Shown here piece after piece: positions 4,147-38,061 of a stretch of 43,946 nucleotides of DNA. The notes under the pieces were generated by a model. It saw only the letters and a program-made list of their open reading frames with translations. It searched no databases and was not told the DNA's origin. This DNA comes from a virus (taxonomy: Duplodnaviria; Heunggongvirae; Uroviricota; Caudoviricetes): IMG/VR virus record IMGVR_UViG_3300045988_019467; one strand, written 5' to 3'. Made by a program: the position numbers and the translations under genes. Numbering within the stretch: the first letter of the stretch is position 1; the number at the start of each line of letters is the position of its first letter.

Positions 4147-4605
4147 ATGGGCTTTTTCAAAGTAACTGATGTGCCGTCGCGCCGTGTCGTCCAGTACGCT
4201 CGCGTGTCTGGCTCCGGGGAGAGCGTGGTGTTTATTGAAGATGAAAGTGTGCTCGGTACACCCGTAGACGATATGCCGTTTGCGGATAAAACCGGTATTG
4301 CGCTGCCAGCGGCGGGCATGCTTTACGAGATTCCGTATCTGGCCGATGCTGGTGATGTGTATTTCTCTATGCAACCGAAAGACACTGAATTGGTGGACGG
4401 CAGCGCAACTATCACTGTCGAAGTTAAGGCAGGCAAAGCGCCGTATGTTCTGACCTGGTACAAAGATGGTAAGGAAGTAGTAAACGCCCCGGAAGAGGCT
4501 TTGTCTCTGACGGTTAACGCGGTGGGTGAATACTTCGTTAAAGTTACTGATGCCGATGGTGTAGAGGCCGTCAGTAAAGCGGCGAAGGTCACCAAACCAG
4601 AATGA
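4147..4605 (+). CDS. Ig-like domain protein (possible capsid decoration or accessory structural protein)
   Basis: C-terminal region has an Ig-like beta-sandwich sequence pattern (TITVEVKAGKAPYVLTWYKDGKEV...GEYFVKVTDADG); a similar pattern recurs in 8306..8647. Confidence 0.5.
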   Translation: MGFFKVTDVPSRRVVQYARVSGSGESVVFIEDESVLGTPVDDMPFADKTGIALPAAGMLYEIPYLADAGDVYFSMQPKDTELVDGSATITVEVKAGKAPYVLTWYKDGKEVVNAPEEALSLTVNAVGEYFVKVTDADGVEAVSKAAKVTKPE

Positions 4606-4608
4606 TAT

Positions 4609-4629
4609 AAGGCCCCTTAACGGGGCCTT
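4609..4629. terminator. bidirectional intrinsic terminator hairpin (AAGGCCCC-TTAAC-GGGGCCTT)
   Basis: GC stem followed by TTAGTTTTATTT; between convergent genes 4147..4605 (+) and 4634..5155 (-); same stem sequence as 2655, 12429 and 24233. Confidence 0.6.
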
Positions 4630-4633
4630 AGTT

Positions 4634-5155
4634 TTATTTAAATCGCGCAGGCATTAACACCATAAAGGCCGTGTTTGAAAATGATATTTTGCATCCTCTG
4701 GTTTGGTCCTGGAAATCGAAACGAGAAATTTCATTTTTGTACGCCTTAGAAATCTTGTACGCGTCTGCCAAATAACGCAGAGTGAACCCTATACTATCGA
4801 CAACACCCGGTGTGATGTGCGCCACGCGTTTCCAGTCAGGAAAGTTTCCTTCTACAACATCTACCGGAAGTGTACATATAAGCGCGCGACTATCGTCATA
4901 GAAAGAAACACTGCCGTTGTCGTGGTCTACCTCTGCGTAGTTAAATTTAGAAGGCTCTCTCCCTTTGATATCAATGAGAACCCCTTTCTCAACGTTTGTC
5001 TTCACATTGTCGCAGAACAATCTATGCCCATTCGTAGACACTATCAACCCCTCAGGTTCTATGTAAAAAGCGTTCAAATAGTAGCGCACATCGTTTTTAG
5101 CCCTGCAGATTTTCGCCCCTACATACGCAGGGAAAGTAATTACCGTAGTAACCAT
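4634..5155 (-). CDS. hypothetical protein (moron, unknown function)
   Basis: 173-aa minus-strand ORF with RBS AGGAGATG before ATG 5155; own promoter-like element and terminator; no motif recognised. Confidence 0.55.
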   Translation of the reverse strand: MVTTVITFPAYVGAKICRAKNDVRYYLNAFYIEPEGLIVSTNGHRLFCDNVKTNVEKGVLIDIKGREPSKFNYAEVDHDNGSVSFYDDSRALICTLPVDVVEGNFPDWKRVAHITPGVVDSIGFTLRYLADAYKISKAYKNEISRFDFQDQTRGCKISFSNTAFMVLMPARFK

Positions 5156-5179
5156 TTCTCATCTCCTGTTTAAGTTAAC

Positions 5180-5211
5180 TGAATAGTACCCTATTATATT
5201 GGAGTATGCAA
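5180..5211 (-). promoter_or_regulatory. class-1 promoter-like element, copy 2 (on minus strand: TTGCAT-N7-TATAAT-AGGGTACTATTCA)
   Basis: Same motif as 3025..3056; TATAAT on the minus strand about 40 nt upstream of ATG 5155. Confidence 0.5.
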
Positions 5212-5263
5212 ACTATTTGTTTACGCATTCCAGTTATTACACTCAATTGTAAATGTTGGAATA

Positions 5264-5306
5264 AACTATTCGAATAGTTGACTTTTCACTAAAAATATGC
5301 TAAGCT
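5264..5306 (+). promoter_or_regulatory. 16-bp perfect palindrome AACTATTCGAATAGTT overlapping a sigma70-like promoter (TTGACT-17-TAAGCT)
   Basis: Perfect palindrome at 5264..5279 built from the same CTATTC/GAATAG half-sites as the repeated operator; TTGACT at 5278..5283 and TAAGCT at 5301..5306. Confidence 0.35.
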
Positions 5307-5487
5307 CCACCTGAGCTTGTGAAGTATGAACAAGCGACCGCGTCGCGGGCAGGTAACGGAGCTGGACGTAAGTCCTGAGTGTAGTTACGCTGACGCGTCC
5401 GGAAGGGCCATACTCTATTGCTTGTGTAAAAAAGTAACTGATTTACTGAGATTACGCCGTTTCTGTGTTTAAATGATAAGGACTAGC

Positions 5488-5512
5488 GCCCCGCTTTAAG
5501 GCGGGGCTTTAC
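5488..5512 (+). terminator. intrinsic terminator or attenuator hairpin just upstream of the spanin genes
   Basis: GCCCCGC-TTTAAG-GCGGGGC stem-loop followed by TTTACTT; lies 20 nt before the i-spanin RBS. Confidence 0.4.
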
Positions 5513-12629: not shown

Positions 12630-13191
12630 TTGGGTAAATCCCCAGGATTCTATTAGCAATCGCGGCCGCTGTTAATGTAATCTCGCCTGGGATGACCACA
12701 ACGTCATGACATACCGCACCATCAATACCGTACAGGTAACCACGACTATCCCCGTCAAACGTATAGCCGTCTCTGCGCAAGCGAACGATTTTTACGTCAT
12801 GCCCTGCGGCGACGATAGGGGACACTTCACTGGCGAATCCACCGTCTGACACTACAAAAACGTCATCGCCGTCGGGCAAGTTTTCAGCAAGATACTTACC
12901 GAAATAATCGCCGCCGAGAACCGGTTTAATGAATTGCTCAGAAATGGCAATCATGAACTGACGACGAGACAAACCATTAAGGAAACCCTCTGGCTTTTCT
13001 TTCCGCGCCCGGTCGTCGTAGCCGTCGAGAAACTCGTGGTACGCATCCGGACCTAACGCTGCCAGAGCAATATTGAACATTGGATTTTTGAAACTGGTAG
13101 CACCCTTCGCAAAGCCCATTTCTACCAGCGCCATAGCAAGTGTGTCTTTCCCACAACCCGCCGGGCCATTAAGAATAATTACCTTAGCCAT
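12622..13191 (-). CDS. P-loop kinase (dNMP kinase-like or polynucleotide 5'-kinase-like)
   Basis: N-terminal Walker A GPAGCGKDT resembling phage dNMP kinase and PNK P-loops; translationally coupled to the upstream HAD gene. Confidence 0.55.
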   Translation of the reverse strand: MAKVIILNGPAGCGKDTLAMALVEMGFAKGATSFKNPMFNIALAALGPDAYHEFLDGYDDRARKEKPEGFLNGLSRRQFMIAISEQFIKPVLGGDYFGKYLAENLPDGDDVFVVSDGGFASEVSPIVAAGHDVKIVRLRRDGYTFDGDSRGYLYGIDGAVCHDVVVIPGEITLTAAAIANRILGIYPNA

Positions 13192-13676
13192 TATTTATCG
13201 CTCCCGTGTGATTTTAAGTGTGTAGAATTCCCGTTACAGTCGTATTCAGTAACCGCGTGAGTGGTTATACCGAGTCCGCGGAAATGCTTTATTACCGCCG
13301 GAGAGTCGTCGAATGCGCACAATATTCTTTCCAGCCCGATAGCACGTAACACCTCTTCTTTAATTACGATGTCTTTTCTGTTGTCGTGTTTGCTGCGCAT
13401 GATTAACTGATAAAATTCGACGCGGTGGCGCTGCAACCACATTCTGGTTTCTTTTTCTGCATCATCACTGCGACCAGTTAAAATAATAACGGCGTAGCGA
13501 CGATTAAGGGCGTTACACAGTTCGATGTTATCTCTAATTGGTTCATCATCTTTGCACGCCATGTTAAAGGGTTTCCACGCCCATGTTTCGTTGTAGTTAT
13601 CTTTCGGCAGCAGGTGTAAACGATGTGTACCATCTGCCAATGTTCCATCTAAATCGAAAATTACAATATCTTTCAT
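13191..13676 (-). CDS. HAD-superfamily phosphatase (T4 Pnkp phosphatase-like motif I)
   Basis: N-terminal IVIFDLDGTL (DxDGT catalytic motif I of HAD phosphatases, as in the T4 Pnkp 3'-phosphatase domain). Confidence 0.6.
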   Translation of the reverse strand: MKDIVIFDLDGTLADGTHRLHLLPKDNYNETWAWKPFNMACKDDEPIRDNIELCNALNRRYAVIILTGRSDDAEKETRMWLQRHRVEFYQLIMRSKHDNRKDIVIKEEVLRAIGLERILCAFDDSPAVIKHFRGLGITTHAVTEYDCNGNSTHLKSHGSDK

Positions 13677-18813: not shown

Positions 18814-19325
18814 GCCAGGAATCAGTAGAAGCCTCCTATCGCCGTAAGCTGGCCTCAAATCCCGACGGCGAGATGGACTACATCACGTTGCAAGTCAGCC
18901 ACCCGTTGCTGTCAAAGACGTACTATCTTGTGCGCGGACTGCAGGAACTTACGGCAACGCTGGAGACAGGCGAAACAATCACGTTCGAACCAACCCCGAT
19001 GGAGGCGTCGGGGGCTGCTAACAATAACGACATGGACCAGACGACGACGTTTACCCTTCCTGACGTCGGAAATTTACTGGACGATGAGCTGGATAATATT
19101 CCGATGGATAGCACTGAGTTGCCGAAGTTCATATTTCGCCGTTATGTCAGCACCGACCTGTCATACCCGGCAGATGGCCCCGTGGTATATGAGGCGCAGA
19201 CCATAGCTCAGGACAAGGGGCGGTTCTCTGCTAATTTAGGGACGCCTATGCTGAACCAACGAAGCACTGGTATACTTATGACACCTAAAGAGATACCGTT
19301 ATTACGCGGTCTGTTAATCACATGA
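18810..19325 (+). CDS. minor tail protein (lambda gpL-like position)
   Basis: ATGA start/stop overlap with the preceding gene; synteny only. Confidence 0.4.
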   Translation: MSQESVEASYRRKLASNPDGEMDYITLQVSHPLLSKTYYLVRGLQELTATLETGETITFEPTPMEASGAANNNDMDQTTTFTLPDVGNLLDDELDNIPMDSTELPKFIFRRYVSTDLSYPADGPVVYEAQTIAQDKGRFSANLGTPMLNQRSTGILMTPKEIPLLRGLLIT

Positions 19326-19687
19326 ACATTAACGACTACACGGGAATACCTTACGACTTTCGCAAACGCAATTGCTGGCATCATGTGCGTATTGTCCGTG
19401 CGGATGCCGGGTTAGCAACCCCGGCGTTCGACGCTACAAGCCCAACGGCAATTAACGAAGCGTTTGATGAAGGTCATCGTGACACGAAGGGGCTTACGAA
19501 AATTGATAAGCCTGAAAACTTGTGCGCGGTTCTTATGGGTAGGCGCCGCGGCGGCAGAATCGTGTGGCACGCCGGGGTCTACTTTGACGGAATGGTGAGT
19601 CATTGCGAAATGGCCTCCCGTCAGGTACGGCTTGACAGGCTTGTTGACCTAAGAGACTTGTACACGGAGATTGAATTTTGGCGATAA
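19322..19687 (+). CDS. tail assembly protein K-like (NlpC/P60-type fold)
   Basis: Cys/His pattern (NCWHHV ... VWHAGVYFDGMVSHCE) resembling NlpC/P60 catalytic residues found in gpK; position before the I/J-like gene. Confidence 0.5.
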   Translation: MNINDYTGIPYDFRKRNCWHHVRIVRADAGLATPAFDATSPTAINEAFDEGHRDTKGLTKIDKPENLCAVLMGRRRGGRIVWHAGVYFDGMVSHCEMASRQVRLDRLVDLRDLYTEIEFWR

Positions 19688-24394: not shown

Positions 24395-24906
24395 CTGGTA
24401 AATTTCCTCGCAAGATACGTTATTTCTTCTTCACAAAGTTCATCAAGGTCGTTAGATACAAATCCTCTGGTGAATGTTTTGCGGAACTTTAATCCAGCTT
24501 TATCATTGTCACCAGCGCACACCCAGTCATACGGCAAAAGTGACATTTGCTGCCGTAGGTCGGTTGATATATTTGACCCCAACGCGCTAACTGCATTAAA
24601 CCCGCAATTCATCAAAGCAACAGCTTTAAATATGCTTTCGGTAACAAATACCACCCCGCTACTTGGCAAATACTCAAGCCCCCATAAACACGGCCTTGTT
24701 GTTCGGGTAAAGTACCGCGCGTCTTTAGGGTTTTTACAGTTCTTTTCTGCGTGTGGTTTGTAGTGCTGGTATCCGCGTAGCTTACCGTCAAAACCCCACA
24801 GGTAAAACGTAGCTACTCCAGCGCCTAAGACTACACGTAAACGGTCGGCGTCAAAACCACGCGACAGCAGATGCGCCTTAAGTAGAAGCTCCTCACCATT
24901 CATCAT
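24391..24906 (-). CDS. Toprim-domain protein (primase-like)
   Basis: Toprim signature: conserved Glu (VFVTESIF) and DxD (CAGDNDKAG). Confidence 0.5.
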   Translation of the reverse strand: MMNGEELLLKAHLLSRGFDADRLRVVLGAGVATFYLWGFDGKLRGYQHYKPHAEKNCKNPKDARYFTRTTRPCLWGLEYLPSSGVVFVTESIFKAVALMNCGFNAVSALGSNISTDLRQQMSLLPYDWVCAGDNDKAGLKFRKTFTRGFVSNDLDELCEEEITYLARKFTR

Positions 24907-26327
24907 TTCTTACCTCTGCGCTTCATATAATTAAGTAGTTCGTCCTGTACAGACCTTTTCTCGTCTGTACGCGCGGCGACAACTTCATCAAGAGTATCTC
25001 TGGCTATTATTTGATAAATGAATACAGACCGTTTGTATCCAGATTGCATCTGCCTTACCGGGCCTATGCGCTCGATAACCTGCAGATAATGCTCCAGGTT
25101 CCACCCCTGACTCATAAATGCCATGTGGTGTCCGCCGTGTTGTAGCGACAGCCCGTGACCCGCGGAGGCCGGGTGTATCAGGAGCATAGGTATTTCACCG
25201 CGGTTCCATGCTTCCATCTGCTTATTACCCTTAGCACCTTTGGCAAACGCCTGCGCCTGAGGGAATCGCTTAAGGATGCGCTCCAGTTCGTGCTTGAACT
25301 GATAGGCCACCAGCAACGGCGCGCCCTGTAACTCCTCTACAATGGACTCGAGCGCATCAAGTTTCGTGTCGTGCACTTTTTCCCAATCTTTGGTTGCTTC
25401 GCCGTCGGGGCCCGACACATATACGGCACCGGATGCAATCTGCAAGCACTTCGACGTCTTCGCCGCGGCGTTAGCCGCTTCAACTTCCCCACTTTCCAGT
25501 TCTGCGAATAGCTTCTCCTCCATATCTATGTACGCCTGACGCGCTTTCTTCGGCAGGTCAATTTCCACCGGCACGATAATAGGTGCTTCACAACCAAACC
25601 ACTCGGCAGCGTCAATCGTGAGACTAATGTCCTTCATCTTCTGGTGAATCTCGTTATCTGCTCCCGGGCGGGCATGGTACTCGCGTGCCATCGCTGATTT
25701 GCCTTTCTGTACCGAGTTAAACCATCTGTCGGTGAATGCCGTGTACGAGGAACCCAGGCGCTCACCTGCGTCGATAAACCAGTTCTGACCCCACAAGTCC
25801 TTGAGGCCGTTTGGCGAGGGCGTACCGGTCAGGTTGATAAAACGCTTAACCTTTCCGAATGCCACTTTACTAAGTGCCTTTGCCCTCTTGCTACCACCTG
25901 AACGGCTGCGGAACGATTTCAGCTTCGTGCTCTCATCAGCAACGATAACCGTAAAAGGCCAGTCGTCTTTGCCGTAGTAGTCAATCAGCCACTCTATTAC
26001 CTCGTAGTTGATACAAATCACATTGGCGTCTGACTCCAGCGCCGCGATGCGGCGCTTCTCTGAACCAGTTGCATCGGCGACACGCAGACAAGGGAATTTC
26101 CATTTCTCTTGTTCCGCGGGCCACGTACCCGACGCAACGCGTAAAGGGGCAAGAATTAACACTCGGTCGTCGTCATTAAGTTGCCCATTACGGAACAGGC
26201 GGTTTAAAGTCCACAAGACGCTGCCCGTCTTCCCGGCGCCCATGCTTGCCCATATGTTGCAGCGATGGTGCCGCAACATGAACGAAGTCATTAGCTTCTG
26301 GTACTCGCGCCTTTGAAACTTACTCAT
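24903..26327 (-). CDS. SNF2 / DEAD-DEAH-type superfamily 2 helicase
   Basis: Walker A SMGAGKTGS, DExx-like box VIVADEST, and C-terminal helicase-domain-like region. Confidence 0.65.
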   Translation of the reverse strand: MSKFQRREYQKLMTSFMLRHHRCNIWASMGAGKTGSVLWTLNRLFRNGQLNDDDRVLILAPLRVASGTWPAEQEKWKFPCLRVADATGSEKRRIAALESDANVICINYEVIEWLIDYYGKDDWPFTVIVADESTKLKSFRSRSGGSKRAKALSKVAFGKVKRFINLTGTPSPNGLKDLWGQNWFIDAGERLGSSYTAFTDRWFNSVQKGKSAMAREYHARPGADNEIHQKMKDISLTIDAAEWFGCEAPIIVPVEIDLPKKARQAYIDMEEKLFAELESGEVEAANAAAKTSKCLQIASGAVYVSGPDGEATKDWEKVHDTKLDALESIVEELQGAPLLVAYQFKHELERILKRFPQAQAFAKGAKGNKQMEAWNRGEIPMLLIHPASAGHGLSLQHGGHHMAFMSQGWNLEHYLQVIERIGPVRQMQSGYKRSVFIYQIIARDTLDEVVAARTDEKRSVQDELLNYMKRRGKK

Positions 26328-27117
26328 TTACGGCCCCCATGAACGCCTTTATAAATTCAGCGGCTACTTGCGGGACGATAGCATTGCCGTAACCGCGCAG
26401 GCGCCCCACTCTGGCGGGAACCCCATTATCTGACGAGCCATAATCGGGTGGAATGATTCGAGTTTTACCATCTGCTCCTTTGTCGGTTTTCCATTCGGAC
26501 CAAAAGTGTGTAGCCACATCTGGCGATATAGCGTGTCGTTTCTCATCCTCCCATCGTTTCTCATGAATGACCGACTTAAATCCCCTGAATCCCTGTGTGA
26601 CCGTGTTGTAGCGGTAGCCCAGGGTTGCCCCAAAGAAGAGTCTTTCTCTTTTGTGCGGTGCGCCGACGCTACAAGCTGGGAGTACGGCAAACCCGACGGC
26701 GTAGTCTTCTCCTTCCAGGTGAGTTTGTAAATCGCACATCCACGATTTTGCAATTGCTGGCGCAACCTGCTCCCCAAAGAGGACTGGAGGGTGGCACTCG
26801 CTGATGAGGTCGAGGAAGACTGGCGCGAGGTGTCTCGGGTCGAACTGTCCGAGTTGTTTTCCTGCCGCGCTAAACGGTTGGCAAGGCGGGCTTCCCGTCC
26901 AGAGAGGCGTATCTTCCGAAACTCCCGCAAGTCTGAGCGCGAGAGGCCAGCCGCCGATACCAGCGAAAAAATGACACTGGGTGAATCCGTCAAGGTCTTC
27001 TGGTCTAATTTCGGTAATGCTTCTTTCATCTACAACTCCAAAGGGTATTTGACCCTGTTTTATTAATTCACGCAGCCACGCGGCGGCGCCTTTATCCCAT
27101 TCATTGTAATAGTTCAT
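26320..27117 (-). CDS. DNA (cytosine-5) methyltransferase, orphan
   Basis: C5-MTase motif I FFAGIGG, motif IV GSPPCQPFSAAGK (catalytic PCQ), ENV-like GEQV, C-terminal GYGNAIVPQV; no adjacent restriction endonuclease. Confidence 0.7.
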   Translation of the reverse strand: MNYYNEWDKGAAAWLRELIKQGQIPFGVVDERSITEIRPEDLDGFTQCHFFAGIGGWPLALRLAGVSEDTPLWTGSPPCQPFSAAGKQLGQFDPRHLAPVFLDLISECHPPVLFGEQVAPAIAKSWMCDLQTHLEGEDYAVGFAVLPACSVGAPHKRERLFFGATLGYRYNTVTQGFRGFKSVIHEKRWEDEKRHAISPDVATHFWSEWKTDKGADGKTRIIPPDYGSSDNGVPARVGRLRGYGNAIVPQVAAEFIKAFMGAVNE

Positions 27118-31161: not shown

Positions 31162-31213
31162 TTGATTTCTCGCTTTTAAGTTTACTCCGGGAGCTGCCCG
31201 GCCAGTGATTAGA

Positions 31214-31242
31214 ACTATAATAGCTAACTATTCAGGTGTCAA
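31214..31242 (-). promoter_or_regulatory. class-2 promoter, copy 8 (minus strand: TTGACACC-N12-TATTATAGT)
   Basis: Minus-strand TTGACA (plus 31237..31242) and TATAGT (plus 31214..31219); about 50 nt upstream of the SSB-like ATG at 31161. Confidence 0.5.
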
Positions 31243-31397
31243 CGCTTAATTTTAGAAACTTTCTCACACCAAAGAAAATAGCGCTCGATTGACTCACTAT
31301 CGCGAAGTTTACGGTCTACCCACGCGATAGACGAAGTGAACGCGCCTATTACTATAAAAGGAGAAACAAGCGCCCAATACTTAATTTTACGAATCAT
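31239..31397 (-). CDS. small membrane protein (one TM helix)
   Basis: 52-aa ORF with hydrophobic core (YWALVSPFIVIGAFTSSIAWV); ATG overlaps the stop of the upstream gene (ATGA). Confidence 0.35.
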   Translation of the reverse strand: MIRKIKYWALVSPFIVIGAFTSSIAWVDRKLRDSESIERYFLWCEKVSKIKR

Positions 31398-32644
31398 TCT
31401 AAATCCTCCTCTGTTACCTGATTCCACTCAGGCCGTTTGTCGTCTGCCGCTGCAACACATGGTGCCCCCGGCTTGCGTGTGATAAATGGCTCAAGCGCAG
31501 CCATCTCGTCCGCCGACAGAACTTTGGCGGCTTCTGTTGGTGACATCAAAACCTCTTTTTTGAGGATATCGCCGTGTGAAACTTCAATCGCGTCCGCGTC
31601 TTTCCACGCACGATTACCAGGGCGACCCTCAACCAGCTTGTACCCCGGCACTTTCTTGCCGGAATGCAACGCGGCAGACATCGCTTTCTCAACCTTGTCG
31701 ATGTGCTGGCGCAACAACGGCAGCTTCTCATACTCAGTTACGAGTTGCTCCGGTGTCAGTTCCGGCGCAAAGTCGTCTTCAAGTTCTTCCGCCAGCACCG
31801 CGTTAACGGTTTTTGTACGCGCAGCACACTGTTCAGAGAACCGGCACCACTGACAACCACCGACAGACGGCCTGAAGTCAGACGCTTTCAGATTCTTCTT
31901 GCCACGGAAATACGCATCAAGAGCCAACAGTGCACGTTTCTGCGCAAACTTAGCGAACAGTTCCAGACCTTCAACCGAGATGTCCCACTCCGACGCACCG
32001 CCAGCATACGGCTGGAAGATGACCAGACGAACCACGGTGATGTTATAACGCCTCTTTAGTCGGCGATAAACACCGAGAGCGTAAAGCATAAGCTGCTTGT
32101 TTTCTTTCGCTTCGACACGATGCCGCCCGGTTTTCAGGTCGCCGACGGTAAGCATGTGCTCGTCAGTGTTAGCCAATTCCTGAACGGCAACAAGGTCAGC
32201 GGTTCCGAACGTCTCAACGCCTTCGTAACCGGGATGCAATACCTCAGTAAGATTGACACGCATTTCCAGCTTGGCGTAAGTCGCTACATCGATAATCGCT
32301 TTGCAGTAGTCGGTATACTTGCGTACCTGCTCAATCATATCAGCCGTAATCAGTACCGCGCCTTTCATCGGACTGATTAGCGCCTTAATCTGGCCTTTAC
32401 CCTCATCCAGCACATAAGCACCGACTTCACGCTCTAACGGCAACGCAGTACCTTTGATGTACTGATTTAAATGGACCTCGGCTATGGTGTGACACGCGGT
32501 CCCTGTAACGGCAGCTTTACCAGACGTGTTAGGAATATCTTTTTCACAGGCCAGTGATGCACTGCACGTCAGCCACTTCTTAGCACCTGACGGCGATAAT
32601 AAGGCGTGCACATCGTTATTGCCACCGCGTTCTTTTAGAATCAT
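31394..32644 (-). CDS. PD-(D/E)xK exonuclease, Cas4-like (DUF2800-type) with C-terminal Cys cluster
   Basis: N-terminal HALLSPSGAKKWLTCSASL signature; C-terminal Cys cluster (GGCQWCRFSEQC) as in Cas4/AddB-type Fe-S nucleases. Confidence 0.6.
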   Translation of the reverse strand: MILKERGGNNDVHALLSPSGAKKWLTCSASLACEKDIPNTSGKAAVTGTACHTIAEVHLNQYIKGTALPLEREVGAYVLDEGKGQIKALISPMKGAVLITADMIEQVRKYTDYCKAIIDVATYAKLEMRVNLTEVLHPGYEGVETFGTADLVAVQELANTDEHMLTVGDLKTGRHRVEAKENKQLMLYALGVYRRLKRRYNITVVRLVIFQPYAGGASEWDISVEGLELFAKFAQKRALLALDAYFRGKKNLKASDFRPSVGGCQWCRFSEQCAARTKTVNAVLAEELEDDFAPELTPEQLVTEYEKLPLLRQHIDKVEKAMSAALHSGKKVPGYKLVEGRPGNRAWKDADAIEVSHGDILKKEVLMSPTEAAKVLSADEMAALEPFITRKPGAPCVAAADDKRPEWNQVTEEDLE

Positions 32645-33153
32645 TTCTCAGCCCCGTTAACTGTAAACCCATATTTAATCTCGGCTTGCCTACGAGCCTT
32701 AGCCGCGTTCTCTAACTTATCGTAGGCCCCTAAATAAATCGGCCTGCCGTCTACATAAATTCTCGCGACCCACTTACCGTAGCGTTTATGAAACCCAACA
32801 CCTTTAACCCCTGAAGTATTGTCCGTCCGTATGTTGGTGCCGTGTGCGATACTACCTCGGCGCATTTTTATAAGATTTTCTATTCTGTTATCAGTTCTAT
32901 CTTTATTTTTATGACGAATTACTTCCCCCGGCGCTATCGGCCCGTTAAACATCTCCCAAACTACGTGGTGGATAAGTTTAGTAGTCCCGTTAAAACGTAG
33001 TATTTTAAATTCACTCCCGTCGTTGTCCTCCCTCGTACTGCCAGCTTCTTGCCCTATTTTTACAGATTTTGACGGACTTATTTTCCAAAATAATTTACCG
33101 GTATCAGGGTCATAGTCAAAAACTTCATGCCAATTCATACTCTGCTCTCCCAC
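32641..33153 (-). CDS. HNH homing endonuclease with AP2-type DNA-binding domain
   Basis: HNH-like motif (IRHKNKDRTDNRIENL) and AP2-like segment (GVKGVGFHKRYGKWVARIYVDGRPIYLGAY). Confidence 0.65.
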   Translation of the reverse strand: MGEQSMNWHEVFDYDPDTGKLFWKISPSKSVKIGQEAGSTREDNDGSEFKILRFNGTTKLIHHVVWEMFNGPIAPGEVIRHKNKDRTDNRIENLIKMRRGSIAHGTNIRTDNTSGVKGVGFHKRYGKWVARIYVDGRPIYLGAYDKLENAAKARRQAEIKYGFTVNGAEK

Positions 33154-33407
33154 TGGTCAATTAAATGTCGTGTCTGGTGGTGGCAATGCATCGCCCATCC
33201 ATACATCGACTCGAAGACATAAAAGTCAGGTTTGGCGAAAGTCGTGCGCTTAATCTGCGACACGTGACGGCCTATATCTTTAGGCCGTGGTACTTTGCCT
33301 AAGTACGCCATCTCTTCCATCTGGTGCGCACCGGACGGCGCGCGCAACAGCCATAACGCCTCTGTGTTATCCCGCCGGTCAACGGCGCGGTAGAGTTGGT
33401 AAATCAT
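33135..33407 (-). CDS. hypothetical protein
   Basis: Start set at internal ATG 33407 (RBS GAGGG) to avoid overlap with the upstream gene; His/Cys-containing C-terminus. Confidence 0.35.
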   Translation of the reverse strand: MIYQLYRAVDRRDNTEALWLLRAPSGAHQMEEMAYLGKVPRPKDIGRHVSQIKRTTFAKPDFYVFESMYGWAMHCHHQTRHLIDQWESRV

Positions 33408-33419
33408 AATTCTGACCCT

Positions 33420-33443
33420 CAGTTTGGTGCCCTCAATAGCGAG
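33420..33443 (-). other. perfect 9-bp stem hairpin (GGTGCCCTC-N6-GAGGGCACC) in intergenic spacer
   Basis: Perfect inverted repeat between two co-oriented minus-strand genes; no U-tract. Confidence 0.35.
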
Positions 33444-33462
33444 GGCACCATAAGTTAAGTAG

Positions 33463-33990
33463 TTATTCTTCTTCGAAATACTTGTTCTTGATTGCCGTGA
33501 GGCGTTCCAGATATTCAGCCAGGTCTTCGTCTTTAATCGCGGCAATCTTCATTTTCTTACCGGTGAACTCTTCCAGTATTTCATCGGAATCGTCGCACGC
33601 GGCATCGCTCGGACCTTCGTTAATCGCATCGTCGATAGCCTGAATCTGGTCACGCAGAGACTGGTAATCGACTTCTTCTTCCGGCTCCGGTGTTGGTTCC
33701 TCTACAGGTTTAGGGGCTGGTTTTGATTTGCCAGGCTTGCGTTTCGGCTTCTCATCTTCTGCCGGTTTAGTGTCAACGACGTCTTCACCTTCAACCGGGA
33801 TTTCTTTCGCCTTCTCGACTTCTTCAAGTGCTTTAGCCAGTTCTTTTTTAACTGTCTCTACCCCCGTTACCGCGACGTCAACAGTCAATTCACCTACAGA
33901 TTTATTAGTCGGTTGTTTCACACTGTTCGCAGCAATCAGTTCATGCGCAACTACGAAACGTTCCAGTAATACTAAGAATTTCTCTAACAT
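33463..33990 (-). CDS. hypothetical acidic, Pro/Glu/Lys-rich protein
   Basis: 175-aa ORF with low-complexity PKPx/EEE region; stop and start coupled to neighbours. Confidence 0.45.
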   Translation of the reverse strand: MLEKFLVLLERFVVAHELIAANSVKQPTNKSVGELTVDVAVTGVETVKKELAKALEEVEKAKEIPVEGEDVVDTKPAEDEKPKRKPGKSKPAPKPVEEPTPEPEEEVDYQSLRDQIQAIDDAINEGPSDAACDDSDEILEEFTGKKMKIAAIKDEDLAEYLERLTAIKNKYFEEE

Positions 33991-34166
33991 TATTTGTTCT
34001 CCTGTTCGGCGATATTGTTAAGTTCTTTAAGAATGTCTTTCTGCATGTTTTCGGGTAAGAAACGGAATGCCTGAGTAATCATACCTTCAACATCCCCACG
34101 TCCTTCTAGGATGACGTTGGGAAACCACACTTTCCAGTTAGCATCATAATCTTTACGTTTAGCCAT
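33990..34166 (-). CDS. small hypothetical protein (first gene of leftward operon)
   Basis: 58-aa ORF with RBS GAGAGGAAAG downstream of class-2 promoter copy 6; stop overlaps the next ATG (TAATG). Confidence 0.4.
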   Translation of the reverse strand: MAKRKDYDANWKVWFPNVILEGRGDVEGMITQAFRFLPENMQKDILKELNNIAEQENK

Positions 34167-34187: not shown

Positions 34188-34228
34188 GGTATGTGCTAAC
34201 TATAATAGCGAACTATTCATGGTGTCAA
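34188..34228 (-). promoter_or_regulatory. class-2 promoter, copy 6 (minus strand: TTGACACC-N13-TATTATAGT)
   Basis: Minus-strand TTGACA (plus 34223..34228) and TATAGT (plus 34199..34204); divergent from the Cro-like gene. Confidence 0.5.
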
Positions 34229-36825: not shown

Positions 36826-37059
36826 TTATTCCAGGTCTTCTAAAGTAGCGGTCATTCCGCGAACTTCGGCAACGGCACTATATTTCCCGCCAACATTTTT
36901 CACGACACCGGATTTAACCAGTACACGTAACGACCCTTCAATAATGGCTGAACTATAGTACTTAAAATAACTACGGCGCAAGTCCATAACGCTGCACGAC
37001 CTTTTTTTACGGGTTAATGAAACGACCGCCGTAAATACGCGTGACTGGAACTCTGTCAT
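36826..37059 (-). CDS. hypothetical protein (C-terminal ...TLEDLE)
   Basis: 77-aa ORF; ATG overlaps the stop of the upstream gene (ATGA). Confidence 0.4.
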   Translation of the reverse strand: MTEFQSRVFTAVVSLTRKKRSCSVMDLRRSYFKYYSSAIIEGSLRVLVKSGVVKNVGGKYSAVAEVRGMTATLEDLE

Positions 37060-37226
37060 TTCACATTCTCCTTAATCCAGGCTTCCACTTTCTCCGGGTC
37101 AAACGTACCGGGCTGACGACGACCCATAATACGGATACAGCAATCAGGGAACTTCCCACTCTTTAACCAGTTATTCAGCGTGCGACGAGTAACCCCGATA
37201 CGCTCAGCTACTTCATTCTGCGTCAT
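37056..37226 (-). CDS. small HTH DNA-binding protein (AlpA/excisionase-like fold, putative regulator)
   Basis: 56-aa ORF with HTH-like segment (QNEVAERIGVTRRTLNNWLKSGKFP). Confidence 0.4.
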   Translation of the reverse strand: MTQNEVAERIGVTRRTLNNWLKSGKFPDCCIRIMGRRQPGTFDPEKVEAWIKENVK

Positions 37227-37365
37227 CTTTAATCTCCTTAATTACTTCCCGTGCGAACGCTGTAGCTGTGCCGTATTTATTAGGGCAGTATCTGCTCTCG
37301 TCATGCCCGTTAAACCACGCCTCTATCAGCAACTCTTTCAACTGTTCTTCTGTCAAAGTAACCAT
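37213..37365 (-). CDS. small hypothetical protein (first gene after the leftward early promoter)
   Basis: Start taken at ATG 37365 with RBS GAGGGT. Confidence 0.3.
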   Translation of the reverse strand: MVTLTEEQLKELLIEAWFNGHDESRYCPNKYGTATAFAREVIKEIKDDAE

Positions 37366-37397
37366 TCTCAAACCCTCATTATCAGTTAACGAAACCA

Positions 37398-37426
37398 AGT
37401 ATACATTGCGAATAATGGGAAATCAA
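37398..37426 (-). promoter_or_regulatory. sigma70-like promoter for the leftward operon (TTGATT-17-TATACT on minus strand)
   Basis: Minus-strand TTGATT (plus 37421..37426) and TATACT (plus 37398..37403) with 17-bp spacer, about 30 nt upstream of ATG 37365. Confidence 0.4.
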
Positions 37427-37703
37427 ACATAATCGCACCTATTGACATTATGAAAATCTTCGTTTAAGGTGCTTCTATATCTTAGTTACTTTGATTCCTG
37501 TTCACCTTGTAAGAATGTTTAACCCGTGCGTCAAGCAAAGGGTTAAACACAGGCTTACTGAACACAAGAATTATCGTAACTTTCCTTCCTTAGTATCTCC
37601 GGTTGCCCTGGGCAAGCTCTATTCTCATCAGCGGCATATCTCTTAAGTATCTGATTTTCTTAATGTGCCGTAGATTCGCAACCGTAAAAATGTAACGATT
37701 ATT

Positions 37704-37724
37704 GGGCAGGCTTAAGGCCTGCCC
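37704..37724. other. GC-rich hairpin (GGGCAGG-CTTAAGG-CCTGCCC) in the large intergenic control region
   Basis: Inverted repeat around a CTTAAG core, with only a short T-tract after it. Confidence 0.3.
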
Positions 37725-37805
37725 TTTAGTTACCAAGTAACAAGAATAAAGGCACAACCTTTCCTGAAGAATCACAACGGCAACGTAACCATTTTCAATG
37801 AATCT

Positions 37806-37838
37806 CTTGCGCACCCCAACATAATAGGATACTATTCA
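37806..37838 (+). promoter_or_regulatory. class-1 promoter-like element, copy 4 (TTGCGC-N7-CATAAT-AGGATACTATTCA)
   Basis: Same motif as the minus-strand copies, here on the + strand about 45 nt upstream of ATG 37870. Confidence 0.5.
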
Positions 37839-37869
37839 CTTATCGAAACGAGACAGAGGAGTGAGGGTT

Positions 37870-38061
37870 ATGTTTAAGAAGGGTCAGTTGGTTAAATACT
37901 CCGACGATAAACACGGCATAATTGAATTAAAATCTGCTTTATTTCCAGGAAAGTACGTAGTTACCGTGCAAAATGTGAGAGGAGTAAATTCACAAATATA
38001 CGTAGCGGAGGAGAACTTAAAACTAATCGGCAACAATTTTAAATTCAAAGAGGCGAAGTGA
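37870..38061 (+). CDS. hypothetical small protein
   Basis: RBS GAGGAG 9 nt upstream of ATG 37870; first gene of the rightward block. Confidence 0.45.
   Translation: MFKKGQLVKYSDDKHGIIELKSALFPGKYVVTVQNVRGVNSQIYVAEENLKLIGNNFKFKEAK

Follow-up and report, generated by a model that had tools for sequence, protein, structure and literature searches.

The 43,946-nucleotide (nt) virus sequence analysed here (IMG/VR record IMGVR_UViG_3300045988_019467; the whole stretch is called the window) is a siphophage genome of about 44 kb belonging to the Kagunavirus/Jerseyvirus group (Guernseyvirinae). Its replication module carries, on the minus strand, a free-standing gene for a protein with an HNH_3 domain followed by an AP2-type DNA-binding domain. 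This allele, designated type A, has lost both of the side chains aligned with the metal-holding residues of the homing endonuclease I-HmuI, while its AP2 domain and N-terminal motif are kept. A 4-kb query around the HNH gene matched 447 phage records, headed by Escherichia phage EcoPhCCP1 (94%), and the orthologues are labelled either 'HNH endonuclease' or 'hypothetical protein' in GenBank. The gene, its domains and its neighbours, with lengths in amino acids (aa) and base pairs (bp), are as follows.

32641..33138, minus strand: HNH-AP2 gene, type-A allele; 165 codons plus stop, the maximal open reading frame (ORF) reaching GTG at 33153
33073..33138, minus strand: 5′ block, aa 1-22 (MNWHEVFDYDPDTGKLFWKISP); 83-100% nt identity in all HNH alleles of the slot
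32839..32970, minus strand: HNH_3 (beta-beta-alpha-Me-like) domain, aa 57-100; His76 kept, with R75, I97 and G100
32671..32820, minus strand: AP2-type DNA-binding domain, aa 107-156; three strands and a helix, with all family-conserved residues kept
33147..33150, minus strand: GGAG motif resembling a Shine-Dalgarno (SD) sequence, 8 nt upstream of the ATG at 33138
33135..33138, minus strand: upstream ATGA junction, where the 90-aa gene stop and the HNH gene start overlap; left end of the 494-bp indel
32641..32644, minus strand: downstream ATGA junction, where the HNH gene stop (32643-32641) and the exonuclease ATG overlap; right end of the indel
33135..33407 (probable real extent), minus strand: upstream flanking gene, 90 aa, phrog_4965, no assigned function
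31394..32644, minus strand: downstream flanking gene, DUF2800 plus PDDEXK_1 (PD-(D/E)XK) exonuclease, phrog_69

The longest ORF at this position in the ORF listing of the window is 32641..33153 (minus strand, 170 aa), with a GTG start. From the sequence, the ATG at 33138-33136 is the likelier start, giving a predicted protein of 165 aa, because it overlaps the TGA of the 90-aa gene as ATGA, has GGAG 8 nt upstream, and is the start chosen in the annotation of three of the four annotated orthologues or near-relatives. The EcoPhCCP1 and ZCEC5 orthologues are annotated as the 498-nt form, and the near-relative in SE-W109 has GTG as its annotated start. Residues are numbered according to the 165-aa form.

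Pfam HNH_3 matched the protein with 53.2 bits (cut-off 24.8; E = 2.3e-14), although only over profile positions 2-37 of 46, and Pfam AP2 matched with 27.1 bits (E = 5e-6), which is under its cut-off of 33.3. Plant AP2 domains in the PDB were matched by sequence (WRI1, E = 1.1e-5 with the single sequence and 4e-9 with a family profile), and the family profile also found I-HmuI (1u3e; E = 3e-6) among the PDB sequences. In PHROGs the match was to phrog_99, 'HNH endonuclease' (E = 9e-52). The AlphaFold2 model, with a predicted local distance difference test (pLDDT) score of 87.6, has strands at 72-76 and 89-93 and a helix at 94-100, forming a beta-beta-alpha unit, as well as an AP2 unit of three strands and a helix. 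I-HmuI 1u3e was the top PDB match of the model in Foldseek (E = 5.8e-4, probability 1.00), followed by AP2 domains, and the AP2 unit superposes on AtERF1 (1gcc) with a root-mean-square deviation of 1.4 Å over 49 columns. An earlier note on this DNA had described a free-standing HNH plus AP2 gene within the replication module, lying between a Cas4-like nuclease gene and a small ORF. The Pfam, PHROG, PDB and model matches agree with the first part of this description, and the DUF2800 plus PDDEXK_1 gene (called Cas4-like in some records) and the phrog_4965 gene with the second; this observation of domains and neighbours is far beyond chance.

The active-site residues were compared within the family and with I-HmuI. 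In an alignment of 33 homologues, H76, N84, N88, N107, S109, G110, G113 and A145 were invariant, and D75, N97 and N100 were conserved in at least 90%. The family profile ('iDH...DNRieNLr...seNakN') aligned with I-HmuI (VDHKDGNKDNNLSTNLRWVTQKINVEN) so that D75-H76 corresponds to D74-H75 and N97 to N96, and D74, H75 and N96 are the conserved catalytic residues of I-HmuI (PMC12724721). The window protein reads VIRHKNKDRTDNRIENLIKMRRGSIAHG, that is R75, H76, I97 and G100 against the family D, H, N and N, so of the three catalytic equivalents His76 alone is kept. The residue mapping is firm because the alignment has no gaps between the invariant N88 and N107. Across 87 single-domain representatives (from 50%-identity clusters of 15 billion proteins), D75 was present in 84, N97 in 83 and N100 in 85, and the R/I/G combination occurred only in the two type-A clusters. 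One metagenomic type-A copy (L026) has S at position 75, and this position is therefore no longer constrained.

Of 33 columns with at least 85% conservation among homologues outside type A, seven differ in the window protein (G43E, Y44F, R58H, D75R, R90I, N97I and N100G); five of these (R58H, D75R, R90I, N97I and N100G) are in the HNH core region, and the N-terminal motif and the AP2 domain are free of such differences. In the window protein the match to the HNH_3 profile runs as far as position 37 of 46, compared with 44-45 of 46 in the canonical A2 and B alleles that occupy this slot in other phages (described below), and the helix block has a pLDDT of 68, compared with 86 in a canonical allele, with the same secondary structure (same alignment). 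Two glycines border the short helix in type A. In His-Me nucleases the metal is held by the corresponding Asp and Asn, and changes at the equivalent positions inactivate the HNH domain of Cas9 (D839A, N863A) and T4 endonuclease VII (N62D). By homology, the gene belongs to the I-HmuI-like HNH_3 plus AP2 ('HNN-AP2') homing-endonuclease family (His-Me group 2). Because the comparison of catalytic residues came out negative, we would not classify it as a bona fide homing endonuclease, and the present activity implied by that name in the earlier note is at best weakly borne out, given the changes of D to R or S, of N to I, and of the third near-invariant Asn to G.

Many relatives of 260-390 aa are tandem (metagenomic homologues P0006, P0047, P0080, P0106, P0107 and P0116). 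These carry first an N-motif plus an HNH-like unit with 'RH' and no helix Asn, and then a canonical D-H...N..N unit with AP2, an arrangement that looks like a recurrent pairing of a pseudo-nuclease with a nuclease. Since degenerate first domains with 'R/K/E-H' and no helix Asn are common in tandem proteins, degenerate and probably nuclease-dead HNH-like modules appear to be retained elsewhere in the HNH-AP2 family.

Against vB_Eco_ORH_001, window positions 31394-32644 and 33135-34003 align on opposite sides of a single TCAT. In phages with an empty slot, a single ATGA both ends the 90-aa gene and begins the exonuclease gene. The window has two ATGAs that enclose the HNH ORF and nothing else, which makes the net insert 494 bp. 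This exact indel was seen against ORH_001, K1G and LM08P2. The ATGA repeated at both ends of the insert doubles as a start/stop overlap, and a search for transposon-like ends found neither flanking inverted repeats nor a target-site duplication beyond these 4 nt, so the insert does not look like a transposable element or insertion sequence. The GGAG within the last part of the 90-aa gene acts for the exonuclease gene in empty phages and for the HNH gene in the window, and the 3′ end of the HNH gene has a G-rich SD-like stretch, with GGGG 9 nt before the exonuclease ATG. With a GC content of 0.43, against 0.52-0.53 in its two neighbours and 0.51 in the window as a whole, the HNH gene is foreign in composition.

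Empty sites are numerous. A 68-nt probe across the artificial junction, used with an E-value limit beyond the reach of either half alone, matched 73 phage records (among them K1G, K1H, K1ind2/3, ORH_001, Hrm2, Bas70, Bas74, SE2 and wksl3), 69 of which cover at least 80% of the probe. A probe spanning the junction of the 90-aa gene with the beginning of the HNH gene matched 19 records, including phage Jersey. The type-A allele itself was found in four distinct phages (five GenBank/RefSeq records) and as three distinct metagenomic copies. Full-length close copies are present only in EcoPhCCP1 (96.5% nt identity), ZCEC5 (92.2%) and LM02P1 (88.9%); the three further distinct copies, from viral and metagenome contigs, occupy the same slot every time. 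The earlier note had proposed that alignment with relatives would show the flanking genes contiguous without the HNH gene, as they are in the 73 records, and that universal presence without empty-site alleles would speak against an insertion; with four distinct phages carrying the allele, it is far from universal.

In neighbour-joining trees of the flanking sequences, the window and EcoPhCCP1 cluster with the empty K1G and ORH_001, ZCEC5 with phiEc3, and LM02P1 with horsemountain. The carriers fall in three flank clades, and type A is spread over more than one backbone clade. Among the 17 loci compared, cassettes that encode no nuclease are equally patchy. No junction polymorphism consistently separated HNH-carrying from HNH-lacking phages among the compared loci, and 30-nt sliding identity between carriers gave no clear sign of co-conversion outside the gene, a comparison made uninformative by the conservation of the 90-aa gene in all of the loci.

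Type A shares its position with other HNH-AP2 alleles and with unrelated small genes, all of which begin at the same ATGA. Coordinates given with L numbers are those of the compared loci.

Same slot: type 'A2' HNH-AP2, 173 aa, 54-57% aa identity; horsemountain, UPWr_S2-4, SE-W109, TUMS_E15 and Jersey
Same slot: type 'B' HNH-AP2, 164 aa, 45-47% identity; BCH953P1, and a frameshifted copy in fBC-Eco01
L010 1597-1944: 115-aa phrog_20588 protein, with a weak Phage_ProQ_C_like match under cut-off; phiEc3 (by span also Golestan)
L011 1598-1855: DUF551 85-aa protein at the same ATGA junction; Schulenburg
L012/L013 1597-1901: two small ORFs at the same ATGA junction; XY1 and VIPECOTH07
L016 1616-1789: 57-aa ORF at the same ATGA junction; fFiEco02

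Because these other HNH-AP2 alleles and unrelated genes share the slot between the 90-aa and DUF2800 exonuclease genes, it is a hot spot for cassettes in Guernseyvirinae. Between the HNH allele types, nt identity is 83-100% across the 90-aa gene and for 60-95 nt into the HNH gene, drops to 40-60% beyond this, and recovers at the exonuclease start. As identity collapses and recovers at these points, exchange breakpoints probably lie within the 5′ part of the HNH gene and at its 3′ limit. The DUF551 85-aa protein opens with ATGAATTGG (MNW), as the HNH genes do. The fBC-Eco01 type B copy (L008 2065-2560), a decaying allele, has a frameshift in the AP2 region; its annotated length is 141 aa, and a 72-bp remnant comes after it.

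Such a site might simply be a general recombination hot spot, with the HNH gene as a mere passenger that spread without any endonuclease, past or present, through ordinary homologous recombination in the conserved flanks. The five or more unrelated kinds of occupant at the same ATGA junctions (DUF551, phrog_20588, the pair of small ORFs, the 57-aa ORF and several HNH types) are compatible with this, as are a second variable slot directly upstream of the 90-aa gene and the lack of transposon-like ends. Set against it is the presence at one site, across two genera, of three divergent HNH-AP2 types, two of them with canonical catalytic residues, a recurrence that exceeds random expectation and fits nuclease-seeded exchange at recombination boundaries (PMC10448857). 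We regard this explanation as improbable, although for the present-day type-A copy it overlaps with the reading favoured below.

Two further variable positions are close by. The second slot is at 33408-33462 in the window, with equivalents in L012, L013, L014 and L016; extra ORFs (phrog_444, DUF2591-like) occur there in XY1, VIPECOTH07 and fFiEco02, and about 200 extra bp in LM08P2, while the window has none. A 163-bp stretch of the window, 34004-34166, aligns solely to EcoPhCCP1 and is missing, with contiguous flanks, from ORH_001, ZCEC5, LM02P1, BCH953P1 and fBC-Eco01, making it another small indel cassette. It is associated with a 58-aa ORF (33990-34166, minus strand) that had no PHROG match.

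Substitution rates bear on both the age of the cassette and its maintenance. Among the four phage carriers, the synonymous divergence (dS) was 0.14-0.44 for the HNH gene, 0.17-0.34 for the 90-aa gene and 0.43-0.74 for the exonuclease gene, the last exceeding the HNH value in all six pairs. The cassette is younger than the divergence of the exonuclease genes, or has been exchanged since. It is not fresh in the window phage, because it predates the split from EcoPhCCP1, and the association of HNH-AP2 genes with the slot is old, extends across two genera and is not a one-off recent event. The suggestion in the earlier note of a likely recent insertion thus finds little or no support: the HNH dS between carriers is 0.14 or more, related HNH-AP2 alleles stand at the identical position in Jerseyvirus, Jersey included, and unrelated cassettes do so too.

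The ratio of nonsynonymous to synonymous divergence (dN/dS) was 0.06-0.13 for type A and 0.06-0.11 for the exonuclease gene, and the motif IRHxNKDRTDNRIENLIKMRRGSIAHG is identical in the four phage copies except at position 77; over all copies, the metagenomic ones included, positions 75 and 77 alone vary. The type-A gene is under strong purifying selection, and the low dN/dS together with the near-identical motif show that it is not a drifting pseudogene. This is difficult to reconcile with the idea of a decaying, functionless remnant within a cycle of gain, degeneration and loss, passively carried and eventually to be deleted. The loss of catalytic residues would be expected of such a remnant, decay does occur in this slot (the frameshifted fBC-Eco01 copy), the gene has been lost from, or was never present in, most relatives, and degeneration of HNN-AP2 genes has been described in Xanthomonas and T5 phages (PMC2248197). 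However, the ORF is intact in every known type-A copy, the constraint equals that on the exonuclease gene at dS values of up to 0.44, and the conserved residues outside the active site are all retained. A remnant of this kind appears unlikely, marginally more so than a passenger.

The reading we favour, at about even probability, is that type A has lost the ability to cleave DNA by the canonical one-metal His-Me mechanism, and that the phage retains it for sequence-specific binding to DNA. Impairment of the nuclease is proposed because both aligned metal-holding side chains are lost while the AP2 domain and the N-terminal motif are kept under purifying selection. The break made by an active ancestor would first have triggered the arrival of a cassette at the slot, and nuclease genes are known to mark exchange boundaries in phages (PMC10448857). 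The cassette would then move between co-infecting phages by homologous recombination across the conserved flanks. Mobility of this kind needs no nuclease, since unrelated non-nuclease cassettes behave alike in the slot. On insertion, the HNH gene would take over the ribosome-binding site of the exonuclease gene and supply the G-rich SD-like stretch at its own 3′ end. Loss of the metal site would follow, with the protein retained as a predicted DNA binder. Its targets can only be guessed at, and could be the ancestral site around the junction of the 90-aa and exonuclease genes, or a GC-rich site. A GCC-box-like sequence (GCGGCGGC; GCGGTGGC in the window) is found 16-23 nt into the exonuclease gene in empty and occupied genomes alike, and any role for it as the AP2 target is pure speculation.

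A more specific version, to which we give somewhat less than an even chance, sees in type A a 'pseudo-homing-endonuclease' that is nuclease-dead by nature: selection would have removed the metal site and spared the general-base His, the N-terminal motif and the AP2 domain, and a lytic phage would keep the protein under purifying selection as a sequence-specific DNA-binding factor. If true, it would be a living intermediate on the proposed route from HNH-AP2 endonucleases to AP2-type regulators, and type A might block or compete with the canonical, presumably active alleles circulating in the slot.

Several points weigh against nuclease impairment. His99, two residues after I97, could substitute as a metal ligand, giving a literal H-N-H, and a single protein ligand is enough for some His-Me nucleases (I-PpoI, Serratia nuclease). 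Continued homing of a selfish endonuclease also predicts strong purifying selection, and the patchy distribution and a dS below that of the flank fit ongoing mobility. The residue mapping comes from sequence alignment with the secondary structure and pLDDT of a model, and the sample is about seven distinct type-A sequences.

The main competitor is the reading of the earlier note, an active free-standing homing endonuclease, here one that would use a non-canonical metal site (e.g., His99) together with His76. It would nick or cut the uninterrupted junction or a nearby site, repair from an HNH-carrying genome would copy the gene, and the phage's own genome would be immune with its site split by the insertion. 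The family architecture and fold agree with this, as do the many empty sites that are potential targets, the indel of the ORF alone at a conserved junction, and the spread across backbone clades with a dS below that of the adjacent exonuclease gene. The dN/dS of 0.06-0.13 is such as continued homing would maintain, His76 and the structural N84 and N88 are intact, and His99 is conserved in type A. On the other side, both I-HmuI metal-site positions are replaced and N100 is G, a combination unique among the 87 single-domain representatives; other basic residues of the HNH core are altered too (R58H, R90I); and glycines stand on both sides of the short helix, where model confidence is lower. Non-nuclease cassettes in the slot are equally patchy and equally exact at the junctions. 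An active enzyme is a serious possibility, but a distinctly less probable one than the impaired nuclease we favour.

The transcriptional context was read from the sequence. Two promoter-like sites resembling those of sigma-70, with spacers of 17/18, lie on either side of the genes discussed.

34199..34228, minus strand: promoter-like site TTGACA-18-TATAGT, 11/12; nearest strong candidate upstream
31214..31242, minus strand: second promoter-like site, near-consensus sigma-70-like TTGACA..TATAGT, 11/12; after the exonuclease gene

As the nearest strong promoter candidate is at 34199..34228, the HNH gene is read as part of an operon, which implies that it would be transcribed together with the rest of the early replication operon and lacks a strong promoter that serves it alone. 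The ATGA overlaps suggest that it is translationally coupled to both neighbours. The intervals 31214-31242 and 34199-34228 are apparently one sequence of about 30 bp present twice, and by BLAST, window positions 31213-31242 also match related loci at a second position, apparently the upstream promoter region. The two near-consensus promoters appear to head two early/replication transcription units.

The operon position also bears on whether the protein could be a packaging-associated HNH assisting the terminase, like HK97 gp74. The generic 'HNH' label would allow this, and such a role has been suggested for HNH genes of fBC-Eco01 (PMC9825357). The gene is, however, in the replication operon and not beside the terminase genes, is missing from most relatives and hence not essential, and is of the HNH_3 plus AP2 type rather than the short PF01844 type. 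Its position and dispensability among relatives exclude this role for practical purposes.

No paralogue or canonical trans-acting partner was found, tblastn of the protein against the window matching only itself; a weak match at 19307-19405 is out of frame within tail genes and was rejected as a paralogue. Pfam scans of the other minus-strand ORFs of the window found no further HNH. Elsewhere on the minus strand are a 265-aa C-5 cytosine DNA methylase-like protein (26320-27117, partial profile match), an SNF2-type helicase (24903-26327) and a PNKP-type HAD phosphatase (13191-13676). Two low-GC stretches, 37001-38000 and 4501-5500 (0.40-0.45 against 0.51 overall), may be further foreign cassettes, and the latter holds a 173-aa minus-strand ORF (4634-5155), with no Pfam match, among plus-strand genes.

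The kind of element described here is very well known, the HNH-AP2 family numbering 63,948 cluster representatives at E ≤ 1e-3, and a homing-type gene in a phage replication module is routine. What is new is a single-domain allele with a remodelled metal site, under purifying selection, in a multi-allelic slot. The slot is a convenient natural system for questions of hot-spot seeding and allele replacement: dozens of empty alleles, three HNH-AP2 alleles and unrelated cassettes meet the flanks at one and the same ATGA, and the coliphages and Salmonella phages concerned are easy to grow. If type A is catalytically dead yet selected, it documents how an HNH-AP2 endonuclease became domesticated as a DNA binder in phages, and the label 'HNH endonuclease' on orthologues (e.g., in EcoPhCCP1) may overstate what the protein does.

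I-HmuI, the intron-encoded HNH nicking homing endonuclease of Bacillus phage SPO1 (1U3E), resembles type A in its N-terminal beta-rich region and beta-beta-alpha core. The family profile aligns to its residues 32-103, including D74-H75, N83/N87 and N96, and both proteins have the general-base His and the structural Asn residues. The C-terminal DNA-binding modules of I-HmuI are of the NUMOD and helix-turn-helix kinds, whereas the window protein has AP2. The two differ also in that the window gene is free-standing and not intron-encoded, and in that the D74 and N96 positions are R (or S) and I in type A.

HNH-AP2 or 'HNN-AP2' genes of phages, cyanobacteria and ciliates go back to Magnani et al. 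2004, as cited in PMC10448857 and PMC5714182; the HNH_3/AP2 family is placed in His-Me group 2 (PMC5714182), and examples include genes of the Xanthomonas phages Xp10, OP1 and Xop411 (PMC2248197) and 'IPA-HNH' of ICP1 (PMC10448857). They share with the window gene the order HNH then AP2, a length of about 160-180 aa, presence/absence polymorphism and a place beside replication genes. HNN-AP2 proteins have been described by the boxes D/H, DNR, NLRE and EN (PMC2248197); HR..W, DH, DNR and NL(R) are matched in the window protein, but type A lacks the 'D' of the D-H pair and the 'EN' box. The Xanthomonas phage genes are scattered in the genome, while the Guernseyvirinae alleles keep one fixed position across two genera. 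In the literature on Kagunavirus and Jerseyvirus HNH genes, only annotation-level remarks were found.

The closest comparison is with the canonical alleles of the slot itself (Jersey, horsemountain, UPWr_S2-4, SE-W109, TUMS_E15; BCH953P1). They have the same insertion point, architecture and first ~22 codons, and 45-57% aa identity with the window protein, but they keep D-H...N..N and type A does not. DNA-binding modules of homing endonucleases have been reused as pure binders in other systems, such as PLE CapR, derived from T5orf172 genes, and plant AP2/ERF (PMC10448857), and CasPR anti-CRISPR repressors have CapR and AP2 domains (bioRxiv 10.64898/2026.02.23.707548). Plant AP2/ERF, CapR and CasPR have no nuclease domain, in contrast to type A, which keeps an HNH-like domain with an altered metal site.

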